From UHGV virus genome UHGV-0077157: 10,542 nucleotides of DNA. One strand, given 5' to 3'. Below the pieces are notes generated by a model. It searched no databases. It saw only the letters and a program-made list of their open reading frames with translations, and was not told the origin of the DNA. The DNA is from a virus. How positions within the stretch are numbered: the stretch's first letter is position 1; every line of letters begins with the position of its first letter. The translations under genes were made by a program, and so were the position numbers. Positions 3,763 through 9,928 of this stretch are shown here, one piece after another.

Positions 3763-4020
3763 TCACGCAGTAAACTCCTTCACCAGTATTTCAAACTGGC
3801 TTACCTGGCCTTCCAGTTCCGCCACGCAATCCACCAGCTCATCCACCGCCTTTTGTGTGCGGTGTTTTGCCAGCAGCAGATCACGCAGCGCCGGAGTAAG
3901 CTGCTTGCGGAGCGTATCCTTTGCCACGCTCGTTTTTTCCATCTGTTCAGCACAACGAAGCATCTCCTGCGCCTGCCGACGAAGTTGTTCCGGTGAAACA
4001 GTGGTTGTTCTGTTATTCAA
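3763..4020 (-). CDS. Hypothetical small coiled-coil protein (85 aa)
   Basis: ORF with TTG start overlapping the helicase stop (TTGA) and a GGAG 8 nt upstream. Charged, helix-prone sequence (QLRRQAQEMLRCAEQMEKT...ELVDCVAELEGQVSQFEILVKEF). No homolog recognised. Confidence 0.45.
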   Translation of the reverse strand: MNNRTTTVSPEQLRRQAQEMLRCAEQMEKTSVAKDTLRKQLTPALRDLLLAKHRTQKAVDELVDCVAELEGQVSQFEILVKEFTA

Positions 4021-5408
4021 AATAAACGCTCCGTTTTACTGCCCGACATGCGGTTATTGCTGTATCTGCGCGGATTGCCCGGCGTCATGGGTGTGGAAAG
4101 AACCCGGGCACTCTCCTGGTCCACTGGCAGAAAATGTCCGTTATGAAAACGCCGGTAAATGGTCCCGAGCGTGCCATTACGCTGTTTCGTGATGTTGATT
4201 TCTGCTATGCCTCCGGCCTGCGTTTCCGGGTTGTATACCTCATCCCTGTAAAGCATCAGAATGATGTCGGCATCCGCCTCGATTTCCCCGGAGTTTTTCA
4301 GGTCCGAGTTCATGGGGCGTTTATTGGGTCTGGATTCCACGCCGCGGGAGAGCTGGCTCAGAGCAATCAGCGGAAAACCGCCGGATTTTGCCAGGCTTTT
4401 AAGTCCCTTTGAGATTTCCCCCACCGCAAGGTCGTGACGCCCCGTGCTGCGGGTTTTAATCAGGCCGAGGTAATCGACCACCACCAGCGCCGTTTCCGGG
4501 TGTTTGATCCGGTGGTGCTTCGTGGTTGCACATATCTCATCAATGGTCAGGTTTGCCTGGTCCACCATCCAGATATTACGCCCCGTCATTCGTCCCACAC
4601 CCTGTGAGAAGCGTGCCCAGTCTTCGTCTTCAAAACGGGCAACAGACTTAAGACGGGATACCGGCATTCCACCGGCAGCAGACACCATACGTTCACCAAT
4701 CTGGATGTTCGCCATCTCCATGGTGAACAGAAGCACGCCATGCCCCTGCTCAGTCACCTTGTCGATGATGTCCAGCGCCAGTTCGGTTTTCCCCATCGAA
4801 GGACGGGCAGCAATGAATACCAGGTCGCCAGGCTCCATCCCCCCTGTTTTTGCGTCCAGTTCATCAATACCGGTCATCAGCGTTCTGGATTTCTCCAGTC
4901 CCTGATTCCGGCATTCAACACGGTCGACCACTTCCGGAAGTACATCATCAATGTGAACAGGCTGAATGACGCCCTTTTCCATCGACAATGAGGCCATCAT
5001 GTTTTGAGCATCCTTCAGAGCATCTTCAGCTGCTTCACAGGTATGCGCATCACGTAATTTCTGCAGCGCCTCATTCAGTGTTTTTTCTGCATCACGCAAT
5101 GCGGCATTGCGCCGCAGCGCTGCAACATAGTGCTCCAGTGACGACTTCACCCAGGTTTTGCGCCCGGTATCAGTAATCACCGGGGCAAGTTCCGGCATCT
5201 CATTGCACAGCAGCACAGGATCAATCGCACCTGAAACACGGGCCTGTCTGCAGATGCCTGTGTAGATATCCCGATACGCTCGTACAGAAAAAACGTCCGC
5301 CGGTAGTGTGGCCAGAATATCCATCACTTCATGATCTGCCCCTCGCAGAAAAAACGCGCCAATGACAGCGCCTTCCAGGTCATCGTTACGCCAGACAGGA
5401 GAAGTCAT
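4017..5408 (-). CDS. Replicative DNA helicase, DnaB family
   Basis: 463 aa. Walker A ARPSMGKTELALD, Walker B VVVDYLGLI, and DnaB signature stretches ALSQLSRGVESRPNKRP and DLKNSGEIEADADIILMLYRDEVY. AGAGGTG RBS; ATG overlaps the upstream stop (ATGA). Confidence 0.9.
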   Translation of the reverse strand: MTSPVWRNDDLEGAVIGAFFLRGADHEVMDILATLPADVFSVRAYRDIYTGICRQARVSGAIDPVLLCNEMPELAPVITDTGRKTWVKSSLEHYVAALRRNAALRDAEKTLNEALQKLRDAHTCEAAEDALKDAQNMMASLSMEKGVIQPVHIDDVLPEVVDRVECRNQGLEKSRTLMTGIDELDAKTGGMEPGDLVFIAARPSMGKTELALDIIDKVTEQGHGVLLFTMEMANIQIGERMVSAAGGMPVSRLKSVARFEDEDWARFSQGVGRMTGRNIWMVDQANLTIDEICATTKHHRIKHPETALVVVDYLGLIKTRSTGRHDLAVGEISKGLKSLAKSGGFPLIALSQLSRGVESRPNKRPMNSDLKNSGEIEADADIILMLYRDEVYNPETQAGGIAEINITKQRNGTLGTIYRRFHNGHFLPVDQESARVLSTPMTPGNPRRYSNNRMSGSKTERLF

Positions 5409-6283
5409 GCAGCCACACCTCTGATACGAGAACGATAGCTGGGCCAGTTAAACGACAACCAGTTGCGTCCCCCGTCTGTGATCCTGTCGGCAATGCGGGG
5501 GCTGATGAATGCCCACAACTCTTCCGGTGAAAGGTTGCTGATCAGGATGGTGGGCAGGATGCTTTCGTACCGGGCATTGATAATTTCCTGCAAAATAGCC
5601 ATTTCAGCCGCGCTGCCAAACTGAACGCCGACTTCGTCGATGATCAGCAAATCCATTGACGCATAATGCTCAATAACTTCATCCGCTGTTTTTTCGCTGT
5701 CATTTCGCCAGCAGTTTTTCACAGCACGGGTAAGGCGCATCACATCAGTAATCTCCACACTAGCCAGATGGTTACGGATGATGTGTTTTGCCATAGCCAC
5801 AGCCAGATGATTTTTTCCAGTACCACAACTGCCTGTCAGAACAAGACTGGTACCGTTAGCCAGAACATCCTCCCAGCTCTCCGCATAGCGGCGGCAGGCA
5901 GCAAGATTTCTGGCTGCATCAGAGTTAATCTCCTGATAGTTTTCAAACTCACAGTCGCGAAACCTACAGGCAACACCAGCATTCTCAATCAGCACATCAG
6001 CTTTCATTGCAACCAGAGTCCGATGTGTCACATCCATTTCATCCACCAGACACTCCGGACAGCGGGAAATTTTTGAGGCAGCGCCCCCCTGCCGATCATC
6101 CCACACCAGTATATGCGTACGATATTTACCGTGTTTTTCGCAGCATCCAACTCCTTCAGATTCCCGACAGGCACGGTAAGGCCATGGCTTTTCGCCATTC
6201 TGAGCAAATGCAATCTCTGCCCGTAACTCATCCATTCGCGCCTGTAGTCTTGTTTGTTTCTCACGTTGGTCAATCGTCATCAT
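5405..6283 (-). CDS. DnaC/IstB-like AAA+ helicase loader with N-terminal Cys-rich (zinc-ribbon-like) region
   Basis: Walker A LTGSCGTGKNHLAVAMA, Walker B DLLIIDEVG. N-terminal CCEKHGKYRTH...CPEC cysteine cluster. Start placed at ATG 6283 (GAGGTG 6 nt upstream); the ORF track extends to GTG 6292. Confidence 0.85.
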   Translation of the reverse strand: MMTIDQREKQTRLQARMDELRAEIAFAQNGEKPWPYRACRESEGVGCCEKHGKYRTHILVWDDRQGGAASKISRCPECLVDEMDVTHRTLVAMKADVLIENAGVACRFRDCEFENYQEINSDAARNLAACRRYAESWEDVLANGTSLVLTGSCGTGKNHLAVAMAKHIIRNHLASVEITDVMRLTRAVKNCWRNDSEKTADEVIEHYASMDLLIIDEVGVQFGSAAEMAILQEIINARYESILPTILISNLSPEELWAFISPRIADRITDGGRNWLSFNWPSYRSRIRGVAA

Positions 6284-6293
6284 CGCTGTCACC

Positions 6294-7118
6294 TCAGAAT
6301 GTCAATTTGTTACTGGATTTACCGTATTTGTCAGACATGGCTCCCAGGCCAGCCAGGACATCGACCTGTCGCTGTCGCCCACCTCCGTGAGCGGCTGGCT
6401 GTTGCCAGTAATCTTCGAAGTGACGATCGGGTCCAAAGAACGTCGCAGCCTGCTTCACGAACTGTGTGCCGGTATTTCCTGTAGCGCGTACCCAGGCGGC
6501 ATACCGCTTCACGCCATCAAGCATGGTCTCCGGTTTTATTCCCTCCCTGATACGGGCTTTCCAGGCTTTGAAGGCTGCTGACTTGGAATTGCCACCAGCA
6601 CGTTTGGGATATTCCTGCCAGGCCTGTTCAAATTCCGGTGAATATTCCTGTCGGGCGGAACGCGCTGGTGCAGACGCGTCAGCGGATGCGCCAATAGTTG
6701 ATTCATTGACTGGTTCTTTGACTGGTTCAAAAGAGTGACTGGTTCTGGGTGAATCTCCTGCACCACCCCCTGGTGCAACTCCTGCACCACCTGGTGAATT
6801 TGCTGCACTAGGTAGTGAATTATTTGCACTACCACCTGGTGAATCTTTTGCACCATCAAGACGAAGAAGATAAATATTGCTCGAGTTCCCTTTTTCACCT
6901 TTCCGGGAAACTTTTTTTACCAGTCCGGATTCACAAAGAGCCGTAATATGATTCATCACAGAACGTTTGCTAATCTCGCACTGATCAGCAATATGCTGAT
7001 AGCTGGGCCAGCACTCGCCCTGATCGCTGGCATTATCAGCCAGCTTAATCAGAACCAGTTTTCGCAACGGATTTCCTACGCGAATTTTCATCGCTTTCAC
7101 CATCAGCTCCATGCTCAT
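6294..7118 (-). CDS. Replication initiation protein (lambda O-like / YdaU-like) with N-terminal wHTH and a repeat-encoded linker
   Basis: 274 aa. N-terminal winged-helix segment typical of phage initiators (LRKLVLIKLADNASDQGECWPSYQHIADQCEISKRSVMNHITALCESGLVKK). Central low-complexity linker (SPGGSANNSLPSAANSPGGAGVAPGGGAGDSP) encoded by the iteron repeats. Sits directly upstream of the loader and helicase. Confidence 0.75.
   Translation of the reverse strand: MSMELMVKAMKIRVGNPLRKLVLIKLADNASDQGECWPSYQHIADQCEISKRSVMNHITALCESGLVKKVSRKGEKGNSSNIYLLRLDGAKDSPGGSANNSLPSAANSPGGAGVAPGGGAGDSPRTSHSFEPVKEPVNESTIGASADASAPARSARQEYSPEFEQAWQEYPKRAGGNSKSAAFKAWKARIREGIKPETMLDGVKRYAAWVRATGNTGTQFVKQAATFFGPDRHFEDYWQQPAAHGGGRQRQVDVLAGLGAMSDKYGKSSNKLTF
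6745..6858. repeat. Five tandem ~22-23 bp direct repeats (iteron-like; candidate phage replication origin) inside the initiator gene
   Basis: Plus-strand copies at 6745-6767, 6768-6790, 6791-6812, 6813-6836, 6837-6858 with core CTGGTGAAT-n-CTGCACCAC. Preceded by three GACTGGTTC 9-mers (6708-6716, 6720-6728, 6737-6745) and followed by a moderately AT-rich stretch (6859-6885). Analogous to ori-lambda iterons inside the O gene. Confidence 0.5.
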
Positions 7119-7342
7119 AGAACACCTCCCTGGCGTTTAAACATTTTTCCGGACTGAAACGCCACCAGCGGGTAACTCAGGGTATAAGTACGCCCCTGCA
7201 CCTGGCAGACAACCTTCTGACTTTCTGCATTGACCAGACAAACCCGCAGAACGTGACCGTTGCTGGTGGCAAACCACTGCCCCACGCGGGGGGGGCAACA
7301 GTTGTATCGGTGATACAGGGAATTAACGACGCGGCGAATCAT
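7115..7342 (-). CDS. Hypothetical small Cys-containing protein (75 aa)
   Basis: Start at ATG 7342 with GGAGGTG RBS; ATGA overlap with the upstream gene and ATGA overlap with the initiator start, so embedded in the coupled operon. No homolog recognised. Confidence 0.5.
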   Translation of the reverse strand: MIRRVVNSLYHRYNCCPPRVGQWFATSNGHVLRVCLVNAESQKVVCQVQGRTYTLSYPLVAFQSGKMFKRQGGVL

Positions 7343-7701
7343 GGGCGCACCTCCCATTGATTACGGCAGAAAGCGGTAAGATTCAGGCTGTTCTCTGCCT
7401 CATGGAATGCTTCAATGCAGCTCTCGTAGTACCGCATTGTGCGCAGACTTAACCCAAGCTGAAGCATCATCAGGCCATCAAGGGTGATGTAATAACCACG
7501 CAGGGAATCGCCATACACGTGGTAAGTACCCGGTATGAAATTACGGGAGAAGAATTCACGCGAGCAGTTCAGATACTCGATTTTGTCGACGATATTCTGA
7601 TGCATGCGCTTGAAGTGGCAGGCAACATGCAGGGAGAAAATAACGGCCTTGCCGTTGACAACTTCAATTTTCAGGTATGGGGAAGTTGGGACTGTAGCCA
7701 T
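7339..7701 (-). CDS. Hypothetical protein (120 aa); the same frame stays open up to 8001 (220 aa)
   Basis: Perfect AAGGAGG 8 nt upstream of ATG 7701 and an ATGA overlap at the 3' end. The in-frame upstream 100 codons have coding-like codon usage in part but the ATG at 8001 has no RBS and overlaps the proposed antisense-RNA promoter. Confidence 0.5.
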   Translation of the reverse strand: MATVPTSPYLKIEVVNGKAVIFSLHVACHFKRMHQNIVDKIEYLNCSREFFSRNFIPGTYHVYGDSLRGYYITLDGLMMLQLGLSLRTMRYYESCIEAFHEAENSLNLTAFCRNQWEVRP

Positions 7702-7988
7702 GATGGCAGCCTCCTTGAGCAGTGAAAAACTTCCACCACCGGAGCTGCGAAACTCATGGGTGGTGAACTGAACAGGGTTCGCAGTACCGGCGCTCAAGGA
7801 AACCGGCGAGCCTTTCGGCTCCCCTGCCCAGCCCACCATAATTCTGGCGTGCGCGAGCATGAACGATAAAAAAGACGCTGGCGCGTCGTATATCGCCTCG
7901 AGCAATTCCGGGCTGCGACCCCCGGCACCCGCTTTATAAGGTGCGGAGACAGTGTAACGTCCCGAAATTGCAGAATCAATATTTGGTC

Positions 7989-8111
7989 TTGAAATGATCA
8001 TATAGCTGCTGATATCTTTAGAACTGTTCTTGGATGTTTCGGAACCGTTTTATGCGAAACAGCTCCCCGTTATTGATGTTGAGTGAGCCGGGTTACTCCC
8101 GGCTTTTTTTT
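7989..8111 (+). ncRNA. Candidate oop-like small antisense RNA (promoter + about 85-nt transcript + terminator)
   Basis: Plus-strand TTGAAA (7989-7994), 18-bp spacer, TATCTT (8013-8018), then the terminator at 8083-8111. Predicted transcript about 85 nt, convergent with the minus-strand early operon, as for lambda oop next to cII. Confidence 0.3.
8083..8111 (+). terminator. Strong plus-strand rho-independent terminator abutting the Rha gene 3' end
   Basis: GAGCCGGG-TTACT-CCCGGC hairpin followed by 8 consecutive T (8104-8111). In the minus orientation the hairpin is followed by TCACTCAAC, so it is unidirectional. Confidence 0.6.
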
Positions 8112-8818
8112 CACCGCTGCCAACCAATAACCTGAAATAACCCCATTTTCGGGTGATACCAGCGAGTCCCTCGCGGTTCTGCTTCCTCCATAACCCGATA
8201 AAAAGCAGCCATAAACGGTTCCACAGCAACAATTGCGCGACGTGACAACAATCCGTCCGGCGTCATGAACTCATGGGTGTCTGTAGGAATCTGATAGGCG
8301 TTCACCAGATTGCGGCATTTATCATCTGACAAACCGGTTTTTGCTTTCAGTTGGCGATATCCGGCATAGCCCTCACGAATAGTGCCCTTTTTAATTTGCT
8401 CGACTGTTTCAGCAACGTGGCTGACTTTTTCTTCCACCTGAGTGATCCGTTTCTGCTGACGAACTGCTTCAAGAGCCATCGCGGCAACCATTTCGATTTC
8501 GCTCATTGGCTTACGGATCTGTTCTTCCAGTTCGCGCCAGCGATCTACCAGGCGAGCAGTGAATTCAGGACAGAGCTGTGCGACGACAATGATGCTGTCG
8601 CGCTTACCTTGTTCTCCTTCAAACAGGTAATGCTCATATTGAACTTTAAAACCTAAGTTATTGATTCTTTCGGAAACCTCAATTTGAGGAGACCGGACAA
8701 CGCCACCTTTGGCTAATGTTTCAATAGTGCGTTTCACATTGTCATGACGTTTACCCACCAGCTCTGCAATTTCAACGCTGGTCATGGATACTTTGCCGTT
8801 AAAAATTGCGATGTTCAT
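8111..8818 (-). CDS. Rha-family phage regulatory protein (antirepressor-like)
   Basis: 235 aa. N-terminal MTSVEIAELVGKRHDNVKRTIETL matches the Rha domain signature (s.eIAeL.GKrH.nVlRdI). Occupies the cII-like position after Cro; ATGA overlap with the Cro-like stop. Confidence 0.8.
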   Translation of the reverse strand: MNIAIFNGKVSMTSVEIAELVGKRHDNVKRTIETLAKGGVVRSPQIEVSERINNLGFKVQYEHYLFEGEQGKRDSIIVVAQLCPEFTARLVDRWRELEEQIRKPMSEIEMVAAMALEAVRQQKRITQVEEKVSHVAETVEQIKKGTIREGYAGYRQLKAKTGLSDDKCRNLVNAYQIPTDTHEFMTPDGLLSRRAIVAVEPFMAAFYRVMEEAEPRGTRWYHPKMGLFQVIGWQR

Positions 8819-9105
8819 TGTTTATCTCCTGCGTGTATTCCATCCGCTCTGTGTGGTGAACTTGGATTTAGGCTTTTGCGTAACAAGTTAGGAATTCCAT
8901 CTTCAGGGTGAGGATAAAGATCTGGCCTTAAGCCATGAGGCGTAACCTTCCATGCAACTACTTCACATACTCGTAAAACGAAACGAGCAGGAATTGTGCT
9001 TTTTGAAAACCACTGATTCACCGCTTGCGGCGTCACACCAAGATTTCGCGCTATGGCATTTTGCGCAATTAATGCACGAAGTTTGTCGTAATCATTTCCT
9101 TCCAT
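8815..9105 (-). CDS. Cro-like (YdaS-type) HTH transcriptional regulator
   Basis: 96-aa ORF transcribed divergently from the CI-like repressor. HTH segment AIARNLGVTPQAVNQW. First gene of the minus-strand operon. Confidence 0.7.
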   Translation of the reverse strand: MEGNDYDKLRALIAQNAIARNLGVTPQAVNQWFSKSTIPARFVLRVCEVVAWKVTPHGLRPDLYPHPEDGIPNLLRKSLNPSSPHRADGIHAGDKQ

Positions 9106-9238
9106 AACAAAGCACCAATATTAACTTTATAAATCAAGAATACATCAAGTTTAAATTAACATGCAAGTTACAAAAGGATCGAATACACTAAAATCAAGTA
9201 AAGATTTATCCTTGTAAAGAAACCCACAGGATTTGGTC
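9106..9238. promoter_or_regulatory. Divergent immunity promoter/operator region (PR/PRM-like) between the Cro-like and cI-like genes
   Basis: 133-bp AT-rich intergenic region between divergent repressor genes. Contains three direct copies of A(A/C)ATCAAG (9131-9138, 9142-9149, 9201-9208) and TAATAT/TATAAA-like hexamers on the minus strand. Individual promoters could not be placed unambiguously. Confidence 0.5.
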
Positions 9239-9928
9239 ATGAAGAACGTCAAAAACACGGAAAATCGAATAGCCGCGATGCTGAAAGCAAAAGGATGGAC
9301 TCAGGCTCAACTGGCCCGCAAGTTAGGTGTGAGTGCGCAATCAGTGCAGTACTGGACAACAGGAAAAACATTTCCACGGAGTGATAAGCTCGCGCATTTA
9401 TCAGAGATTAGCGGTTATCCACAATCCTGGTTCTTAGGTGAAGACTCCTCACCAACCTTTTCCTCGCAAGAGAAACACCAGACAAGAACAGATAGCGTCG
9501 TGTTTAATGTCCTTGATGTTGAGTTTAGTTGCGGTGATGGAACTCATGTCCGTGGTGACTTGATAGATGTAGTGCGCTCAATAGAACTTGATCCTGAATA
9601 TGCCCGACGTCTTGTTGGAAATCGGGCATTCAAAAATATAGAAATAGGTAACGCCAGAGGAGACAGTATGGCTCCCACAATCTCACCTGGCGACCTTCTT
9701 TTTCTTGATAAGACAGTAACTTATTTTGATGGCGATGGTATTTATGCATTTTGTTTTGATGGAGAATGCTACGTGAAAAGGCTTCAAAAAATTGGAAGCA
9801 AAATCATGGTGTTATCTGATAACCCCAATTATCAACCATGGAGCATCGAAAAAGAGGGGTTAGCTCTGCTTTATATCCAGTCTAAAGTGATCTCATCAGT
9901 ACCATTCAACATAAACAGATTTGGTTAG
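9239..9928 (+). CDS. CI-like prophage repressor (N-terminal HTH + C-terminal S24 LexA-like peptidase domain)
   Basis: N-terminal HTH (WTQAQLARKLGVSAQSVQYW) and C-terminal autocleavage domain with GDSMAPTISPGDLLFLD (catalytic Ser) and a downstream Lys (CYVKRL). Start taken as ATG 9239 (AGGA 7 nt upstream); the ORF track begins at TTG 9233. Confidence 0.9.
   Translation: MKNVKNTENRIAAMLKAKGWTQAQLARKLGVSAQSVQYWTTGKTFPRSDKLAHLSEISGYPQSWFLGEDSSPTFSSQEKHQTRTDSVVFNVLDVEFSCGDGTHVRGDLIDVVRSIELDPEYARRLVGNRAFKNIEIGNARGDSMAPTISPGDLLFLDKTVTYFDGDGIYAFCFDGECYVKRLQKIGSKIMVLSDNPNYQPWSIEKEGLALLYIQSKVISSVPFNINRFG

Follow-up and report, generated by a model that had tools for sequence, protein, structure and literature searches.

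The stretch of DNA analysed here (the window; 10,542 nt of the virus genome UHGV-0077157) is an Escherichia coli lambdoid prophage, with the gene order of a lambdoid early region. A prophage in the chromosome of E. coli E30 matches the window at 100% identity, and at least 80% of the window is present in 40 complete genomes. Its replication initiator gene sits upstream of genes for a DnaC-like helicase loader and a DnaB-like helicase, and contains the repeats that are our subject. An earlier note on this DNA had proposed that iteron-like repeats in an 'O-like' initiator gene form a candidate replication origin, bound by the initiator, that mirrors ori-lambda. Four independent comparative results support an origin: silent-site suppression, repeats that track the recognition helix of the initiator, a variable copy number and co-inheritance with the N-terminal domain. 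On this strong, though indirect, comparative evidence we regard positions 6708–6854 as probably the initiator-binding core of the prophage replication origin, located inside the linker-coding part of its own initiator gene.

The initiator and its in-gene repeats

The initiator belongs to Pfam family HTH_36 (residues 17–67; E=2.5e-11; 43.6 bits against a cut-off of 25) and matches PHROG 270, 'replication initiation protein' (E=7.6e-91). It is not a homologue of lambda O: a Pfam search gave no match to Phage_rep_O, the lambda O family, at E<=0.01. The match to DnaD_N (E=3.5e-5) reached 24.3 bits against a cut-off of 27, which places the protein outside the DnaD N-terminal family. The likeness to ori-lambda is therefore one of layout, with iterons inside the gene, and not of ancestry. 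In the AlphaFold2 model, residues 1–85 form a winged helix domain (predicted local distance difference test (pLDDT) 77–89) with a predicted recognition helix at about residues 51–64 and a wing at about residues 67–85; residues 93–156 are disordered (pLDDT ~31), and a second folded domain spans residues ~160–227. A Foldseek search with this model returned generic winged-helix matches only, all with non-significant E-values, including the DnaD N-domain 2v79 (E=0.013) and a plasmid Rep–DNA complex. A sequence search of solved structures found nothing relevant. The first 47 residues are nearly invariant in the initiator family. The wing-coding part carries an A7 run on the coding strand (TTTTTTT on the + strand, 6913–6921; GTA AAA AAA GTT, codons 67–70) that is unchanged in a diverged clade; it could be a slippage-prone tract or merely a Lys-Lys coding run.

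Sequence reading, repeat finders and a pattern search (GGTGMA-N5-TKCACY on the + strand) identified five 17-bp iterons with start-to-start spacings of 24, 21, 21 and 24 bp (Table 1). The tandem direct repeats of the earlier note are thus confirmed, as five dyad units 21–24 bp apart. Each is an imperfect dyad, reading GGTG(A/C)A-N5-T(G/T)CAC(C/T) on the + strand and RGTGCA-N5-T(T/G)CACY on the coding strand. Allowing one mismatch, we counted 15 strand-matches to the pattern in the window. The five sites account for 10; the mean in shuffled sequence was 0.49, and 15 matches were reached in 0 of 200 shuffles. All the repeats lie within codons 89–143 of the initiator open reading frame (ORF), the iterons themselves in codons 89–124. 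As the note had it, this is the linker-encoding part, which AlphaFold2 predicts to be disordered. The repeats fall between the gene segments for the N- and C-terminal domains, the position expected of a lambda-type origin, and the iterons also agree with such an origin in being at least four dyad repeats of ~17–19 bp, about two helical turns apart.

Beside the iterons are three exact copies of the 9-mer GACTGGTTC (+ strand), as the note had seen, spaced by 12 and 17 bp. The spacing of 17 bp is not divisible by three. The copy at 6737 therefore stands in a different frame, read AGA ACC AGT C, whilst the other two are read GAA CCA GTC. With one copy in another frame, the 9-mer is a DNA repeat rather than a peptide repeat.

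Table 1. Positions of the initiator gene, its repeats and the neighbouring genes in the window
Feature	Position	Strand	Details
Initiator gene	6294-7118	-	274 residues; winged helix N-terminus, disordered linker, helical C-terminal domain
Winged helix-turn-helix DNA-binding domain	6855-7118	-	codons 1-88
Iteron 1 (gene order)	6838-6854		coding strand GGTGCAAAAGATTCACC
Iteron 2	6814-6830		coding strand AGTGCAAATAATTCACT
Iteron 3	6793-6809		coding strand AGTGCAGCAAATTCACC
Iteron 4	6772-6788		coding strand GGTGCAGGAGTTGCACC; perfect 6-bp dyad
Iteron 5	6748-6764		coding strand GGTGCAGGAGATTCACC; directly abuts the 36-nt conserved block
Family-conserved 36-nt block	6712-6747		coding strand CAGAACCAGTCACTCTTTTGAACCAGTCAAAGAACC; codons 124-143
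9-mer	6737-6745	+	GACTGGTTC
9-mer	6720-6728	+	GACTGGTTC
Third 9-mer	6708-6716	+	GACTGGTTC; specific to the window's clade
C-terminal domain	6297-6692	-	codons 143-274
DnaC/IstB-like AAA+ helicase loader gene	5405-6292	-	Pfam IstB_IS21 E=4.4e-16; PHROG 50
DnaB-like replicative helicase gene	4017-5408	-	Pfam DnaB_C E=2.6e-73; TIGR00665 E=2.2e-92
Small ORF	7115-7357		next to the initiator gene
Two Rha/Ash-type genes			between the Cro/YdaS-like gene and the small ORF
Cro/YdaS-like gene	8815-9105	-	
cI-like repressor gene	9233-9928	+	

Silent sites, recognition helix and module exchange

We gathered 80 viral-contig loci and made a codon alignment of 60 distinct genes. Between the window and clade B (~84% amino-acid identity), synonymous and nonsynonymous divergence were 0.27 and 0.007 in codons 1–62 (N-domain) and 0.43 and 0.034 in codons 63–88 (the AT-richer wing-coding part). 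The corresponding values were 0.03 and 0.091 in codons 89–124 (iterons), 0.00 and 0.072 in codons 125–147 (9-mer region), and, downstream, 0.42 and 0.124 in codons 148–200 and 0.72 and 0.174 in codons 201–255. Synonymous divergence across codons 89–147 was thus ~10-fold below that of the flanks (Fisher test, p = 8e-9 against both flanks and 1.6e-4 against the upstream flank alone). Within the iterons, clade B has substitutions only at the R/Y ends and in the central spacer, with none in the GTGCA...TTCAC core. From the values by region, the linker accepts amino-acid change whilst its silent positions are frozen; the repeats are constrained as DNA.

The repeats also track the recognition helix. 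Relatives of the N-terminal module (46–66% identity) from phages of E. coli, Salmonella, Klebsiella, Stenotrophomonas, Vibrio and Aggregatibacter each have their own 2–6 dyad repeats (~21–24 bp) at the same position, and among these phages the half-site differs with the predicted recognition helix. The window's helix, ISKRSVMNHI, goes with GTGCA / TGCAC; the -TAMR- / -SVMRHI type with GTGAC / GTCAC; -TAI(N/G)HI with TGTAA / TTACA (-TAIGHI being listed with GTGTAA / TTACAC); -STVK- with GGGGCAG / CTGCCCC; -STVRKHI with TAGGC / GCCTA; and CSKSAV- with (T/A)TGCC...GCA. The pairing was reproduced in a second set, collected independently: 80 genomic loci, with one genome per species, retrieved by N-terminal peptide patterns alone. 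There, SKRSVMRHI occurs with GTGAC and -TTAINHI with TGTAA. The window's helix was present at 20 loci of this set, including Pseudomonas, and its half-site was found at all four of those listed.

Repeat number was variable, as could be asked from the note's proposed comparison with homologous prophages. Among 74 distinct genes of the window's type, five units are present in 69, seven in one and four in four, the last taken to be point changes in one unit. None lacks an array, so the outcome by which the note would have been refuted, repeats missing from otherwise identical homologues, did not occur (at least four units in 74/74, at least five in 70/74). Near-identical database proteins with eight or nine units (P0023, P0035, P0022 and P0054) extend the copy numbers among near-identical proteins to 5, 7, 8 and 9.

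This ready change in copy number, the predicted disorder of the encoded linker and the fact that all iteron spacings are multiples of three, as in-frame duplication needs, are what would be expected if the repeats were a by-product of a low-complexity Pro/Gly/Ala/Ser linker grown by slippage and had no function as DNA. We consider this highly improbable. A neutral linker is expected to match its flanks in synonymous divergence, but evolves ~10 times more slowly at these sites; the units are DNA dyads whose half-site tracks the recognition helix across genera; the peptide repeats vary freely among relatives whilst the DNA architecture stays constant; and one 9-mer copy stands in another frame.

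Searching phage genomes with tblastn gave matches that span either residues 1 to ~138 or residues 126–274, so the protein is modular. The Stx1a-converting phage Stx1_499 (L092) has an unrelated N-module, with a C-module 91.5% identical to that of the window, a DnaC-like protein 80% identical and a DnaB-like protein 97% identical. The repeats are inherited with the N-domain, and the comparisons indicate that N-domain, repeats and 9-mers make up one mobile module, whilst the C-domain moves with the helicase genes. By co-inheritance only, the C-domain appears to be functionally tied to the helicase-loading genes. The initiator gene of Stx1_499 carries its own in-gene repeats, of GGGAAAC type and ACAGAGAATAC type, at the equivalent position (codons ~105–170); therefore, in-gene repeat arrays recur across initiator families that share the loader module. 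The present prophage encodes both a DnaC-like loader and a DnaB-like helicase of its own; other relatives of the N-module are paired with primase-helicase fusions, a P-like loader or a DnaB-like gene alone.

A 36-nt block conserved as nucleotides

The 9-mers reported by the earlier note are not a local oddity but part of a 36-nt block that is conserved as nucleotides across many genera of the Gammaproteobacteria and stands, in nearly all relatives, right behind the last repeat. The block holds two GAACCAGTC 9-mers (the + strand copies at 6737 and 6720) and encodes the peptide RTSHSFEPVKEP; the number of 9-mer copies is 2–4 in close relatives. In all nine tblastn phage relatives (46–66% protein identity), nearly the same 36 nt, CAGAACCAGTCACTCTTTTGAACCAGTCAAnGAACC, directly follow the last iteron, and synonymous change is saturated in the codons around them. 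The second set of genomic loci was unselected for the block, which was nevertheless found with <=7 mismatches at ~70 of the 80; several of the remaining loci have a version one codon shorter. Hosts include Enterobacter, Pseudomonas, Aeromonas, Shewanella, Marinomonas and Xenorhabdus, as well as Proteus, Providencia, Marinobacter, Microbulbifer and a Cardiobacteriaceae genome. Across 28 distinct in-frame variants, there were 4 synonymous and 54 nonsynonymous codon changes, with third positions the least variable. This is the reverse of protein selection, and the block is therefore conserved as DNA. As a coding sequence under constraint at the DNA rather than the protein level, it lends itself to a clean test.

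Where the block occurs points to the N-module. In an exact-pattern scan of viral contigs it lay, at every locus examined, in an ORF whose N-module, where complete, starts with the MSM N-terminus of the family (85 distinct N-modules). More distant N-domains keep a degenerate block (AACCAGTCATATATAACCAGT in mEp010 and CCTAACAGTATTCCTAACAC in Vibrio phage K249). Stx1_499 shares the C-module and the DnaC-like and DnaB-like genes of the window but has no block, and the Vibrio phages D62 and K249 have a common C-module, with the canonical block in D62 only. From these patterns, the block follows the N-module and not the host or the helicase system. A site specific for a host factor or for the helicase is disfavoured, as Stx1_499 and K249 both lack the canonical block, and the distribution favours an element coupled to the initiator N-domain.

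The block has been kept as nucleotides in prophages of Enterobacteriaceae, Pseudomonas, Aeromonas, Shewanella, Vibrio, Marinomonas, Pasteurellaceae and others, whilst the adjoining iterons and the recognition helix changed specificity repeatedly. Tentatively, CAGAAYCAGTMACTCTYYTGAAYCAGTMA, in which the 9-mer GAACCAGTC occurs two to four times, could be a core element of the origin, so far undescribed and peculiar to this winged-helix initiator family. The first 47 residues, which are invariant, might recognise the block, perhaps as single-stranded DNA, and so set where the strands open or the helicase enters. The family would in that case use a two-part origin code, with a variable address and a constant engine.

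The block could instead have been kept for reasons other than an origin, either as a recombination junction for module exchange or because RTSHSFEPV is an essential peptide whose codons are homogenised by exchange. It does lie exactly at the module breakpoint (residues 126–143), and the peptide is fairly conserved too. However, 54 nonsynonymous against 4 synonymous changes, with third positions most conserved, is the opposite of selection on a peptide, and conserved N-domain residues nearby use near-random synonymous codons. Homogenising of 36 bp among phages of Vibrio, Pseudomonas, Shewanella and Enterobacteriaceae, with adjacent codons spared, seems unlikely, and a junction would explain exchange at the block but not retention of its sequence. 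Overall, we think such an explanation unlikely.

We found neither the block sequence nor its peptide in the open-access literature, a scope that leaves out most papers in subscription journals, including older work on lambdoid origins; a literature search with the 9-mer alone returned unrelated primer sequences only. By eye, CAC UCU UUU GAA contains no canonical heptamer for a frameshift or slippery site. A fold-back through inverted 9-mer copies at 6913–6925 and 7050–7059 was rejected: the second lies in KLVL codons with near-random synonymous codons among relatives, and the first has a substitution in clade B.

The candidate origin in its setting

In the mechanism that we propose, the winged-helix N-domain of the initiator would bind as dimers to the five dyad iterons of 17 bp, which are spaced by about two helical turns. 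Just downstream, the 36-nt block with its 9-mers would be a second origin element tied to the N-domain family; opening or engagement of the DNA by the iteron-bound complex most likely takes place there. The C-terminal domain would recruit the DnaC-like loader and the DnaB-like helicase encoded just downstream. Were the block the opening or loading site, it would show a lambdoid-type origin working without the classic AT-rich tract.

Several points weigh against an origin here. No strongly AT-rich unwinding tract is evident on either flank of the iterons: GC content in the block is 44%, and the flanks reach only the ~76th–96th percentile of 40-bp helix instability in the window (~76th–90th at the block itself). 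The least stable DNA of the window is elsewhere and intergenic, e.g. at 9088–9235 and 7963–8039. DnaA boxes are not enriched, with 21 matches to TTWTNCACA at one mismatch against 21.3 expected, and they form no cluster at 6600–7000 as would be expected of an iteron-plasmid class of origin. The link between helix and half-site is a tabulated association without phylogeny-corrected statistics, and the recognition helix is assigned from a model with a predicted template modelling score (pTM) of 0.35, although the pLDDT of the N-domain is 77–89. We infer initiator binding, unwinding, helicase loading and origin firing from sequence comparison, and the role of the block from its pattern of occurrence.

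The AT-richer segment of the earlier note is real (6855–6935; GC 0.38–0.42 against 0.51 for the gene), but it is modest: at the 80th–96th percentile of 40-bp instability, it is not among the least stable DNA of the window. Nor is it the neighbour that relatives share, which is instead the 9-mer block on the other side of the iterons, downstream in the gene. Measured against the mean of the gene, GC content across 20 representatives is nevertheless lowest in the block. Read in the sense of transcription, the block comes after the iterons, which are relatively GC-rich; the AT-rich tract of lambda has this same place. Just past the 9-mers, 6640–6700 is the most stable GC-rich 40-bp stretch of the window (0–4th percentile); it holds the palindrome GCAGACGCGTCAGC and makes a sharp step in stability beside the conserved block.

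The missing AT-rich tract, and the placing of the least stable DNA elsewhere, would suit initiator sites that serve autoregulation or copy-number control (by titration, handcuffing or a transcriptional roadblock), with replication starting at another place such as a less stable intergenic region. Plasmid iterons do act in both initiation and control (PMC4980987). Nevertheless, the region 6200–7500 has no sigma-70-like promoter or intrinsic terminator. N-domain, repeats and block travel as a unit among unrelated replication modules, as an initiator with its cognate origin would, and the layout agrees with origins mapped in lambda and assigned in P22 (PMC8022706). A role confined to control is, in our judgement, quite improbable. 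By eye, the TTGACT and TTGAAC hexamers of the block have no conserved -10 partner. Rfam has no family at the repeats; its only matches, C4 and isrK, are ~1 kb away.

An origin at the repeats would closely resemble ori-lambda in layout. There, as in 933W and P27, the initiator gene has the origin at its middle, with the DNA-binding N-domain encoded on one side and the loader-recruiting C-domain on the other. The repeats, at least four in number, are ~18–19 bp long, internally dyad-symmetric and spaced by about two helical turns, and the N-half with the origin exchanges separately from the C-half with the loader gene. Lambda has four repeats and 933W and P27 have six (PMC7466680). The present initiator, in contrast, has no detectable sequence relation to lambda O, and its partners are a DnaC-like AAA+ loader and a phage DnaB-like helicase, whereas lambda P hijacks the host DnaB. 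Where lambda has a ~40-bp strongly AT-rich tract, we find the conserved 44% GC block with repeated 9-mers. The AT-rich part of the origin was reportedly found by Moore and colleagues in 1979 to be conserved among lambda, phi80 and 82, whilst the iterons differ. If so, a pattern of variable iterons with a constant neighbour has a precedent in kind.

Iterons inside the initiator gene are known from lambda O and from gene 18 of both P22 and phage L (PMC8022706; PMC7466680). Each of them has the layout seen here: dyad repeats about two turns apart, within the initiator gene, in a number that varies, and a specificity half that is exchanged separately from the loader-binding half. Gene 18 has four ~20-bp repeats in P22 and six 11-bp repeats in L, which were read as an origin (PMC8022706). 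These too are lambdoid phages with a different initiator type, a phage-encoded DnaB-type helicase and repeats inside the initiator gene. Judged from their description, they are set apart from the window by other repeat sequences and initiator families; no conserved flanking block was described (PMC8022706). An in-gene iteron origin is thus a known layout, and the most interesting part is the nucleotide-conserved 9-mer block.

Iteron plasmids (RK2 TrfA, R6K pi and pPS10 RepA) likewise have winged-helix initiators acting on direct repeats (reviewed in PMC4980987). In these plasmids an adjoining element with short repeated motifs is opened. Their iterons are intergenic, usually with DnaA boxes, whereas ours are in coding sequence. 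Wegrzyn and colleagues are said to have found in 2014 that the unwinding element of RK2 is contacted by the Rep protein as single-stranded DNA. The present initiator family is seldom found on plasmids, with matches in 29 records out of 72,556; many of these have the size of a phage genome (~40 kb). The N-module occurs on the phage-sized circular plasmid records NZ_CP148393.1 (44.6 kb), NZ_CP118695.1 (41.5 kb) and NZ_CP098024.1 (43.5 kb), and on ~10 Arsenophonus plasmid records, most of 28–48 kb. Phage-sized records may be phage genomes outside the chromosome, or phage-plasmids, that use this type of origin for their replication. With organisers of the DnaD/SPP1 G38P type, the likeness is one of the general winged-helix fold only, the DnaD_N and 2v79 matches both being below significance. 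The oriL of SPP1 is also inside its initiator gene.

This type of initiator is widespread, with at least 5,519 matching protein clusters, and is present in Stx2c- and Stx2a-converting phages, SfV, cdtI and many other prophages; its usual RefSeq label is only 'helix-turn-helix domain-containing protein'. An origin location together with the specificity code would yield a natural table of recognition helices and half-sites. Such a table would help to predict which co-resident prophages, toxin-converting ones among them, are incompatible in replication or cross-activate one another.

As to the neighbouring genes, the DnaC-like loader matches the NCBIfam DnaC model with E=8e-41, under the cut-off of that model. 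Upstream of the replication genes, within or beside the Ash/Rha-type ORF 7339–8001, Rfam matches above the gathering score mark a C4 antisense RNA (7756–7843, - strand; 84.4 bits) and the Hfq-binding small RNA isrK (7868–7944, - strand; 56.4 bits). This suggests P1/P7-style antisense control of an antirepressor in a lambdoid prophage. The cI–cro intergenic region (9106–9232) contains a short tandem repeat of ATAAATCAAGA (1.9 copies, 9129–9149). Helix stability there is among the lowest in the window, and the repeat probably represents operator or promoter elements of the immunity switch.

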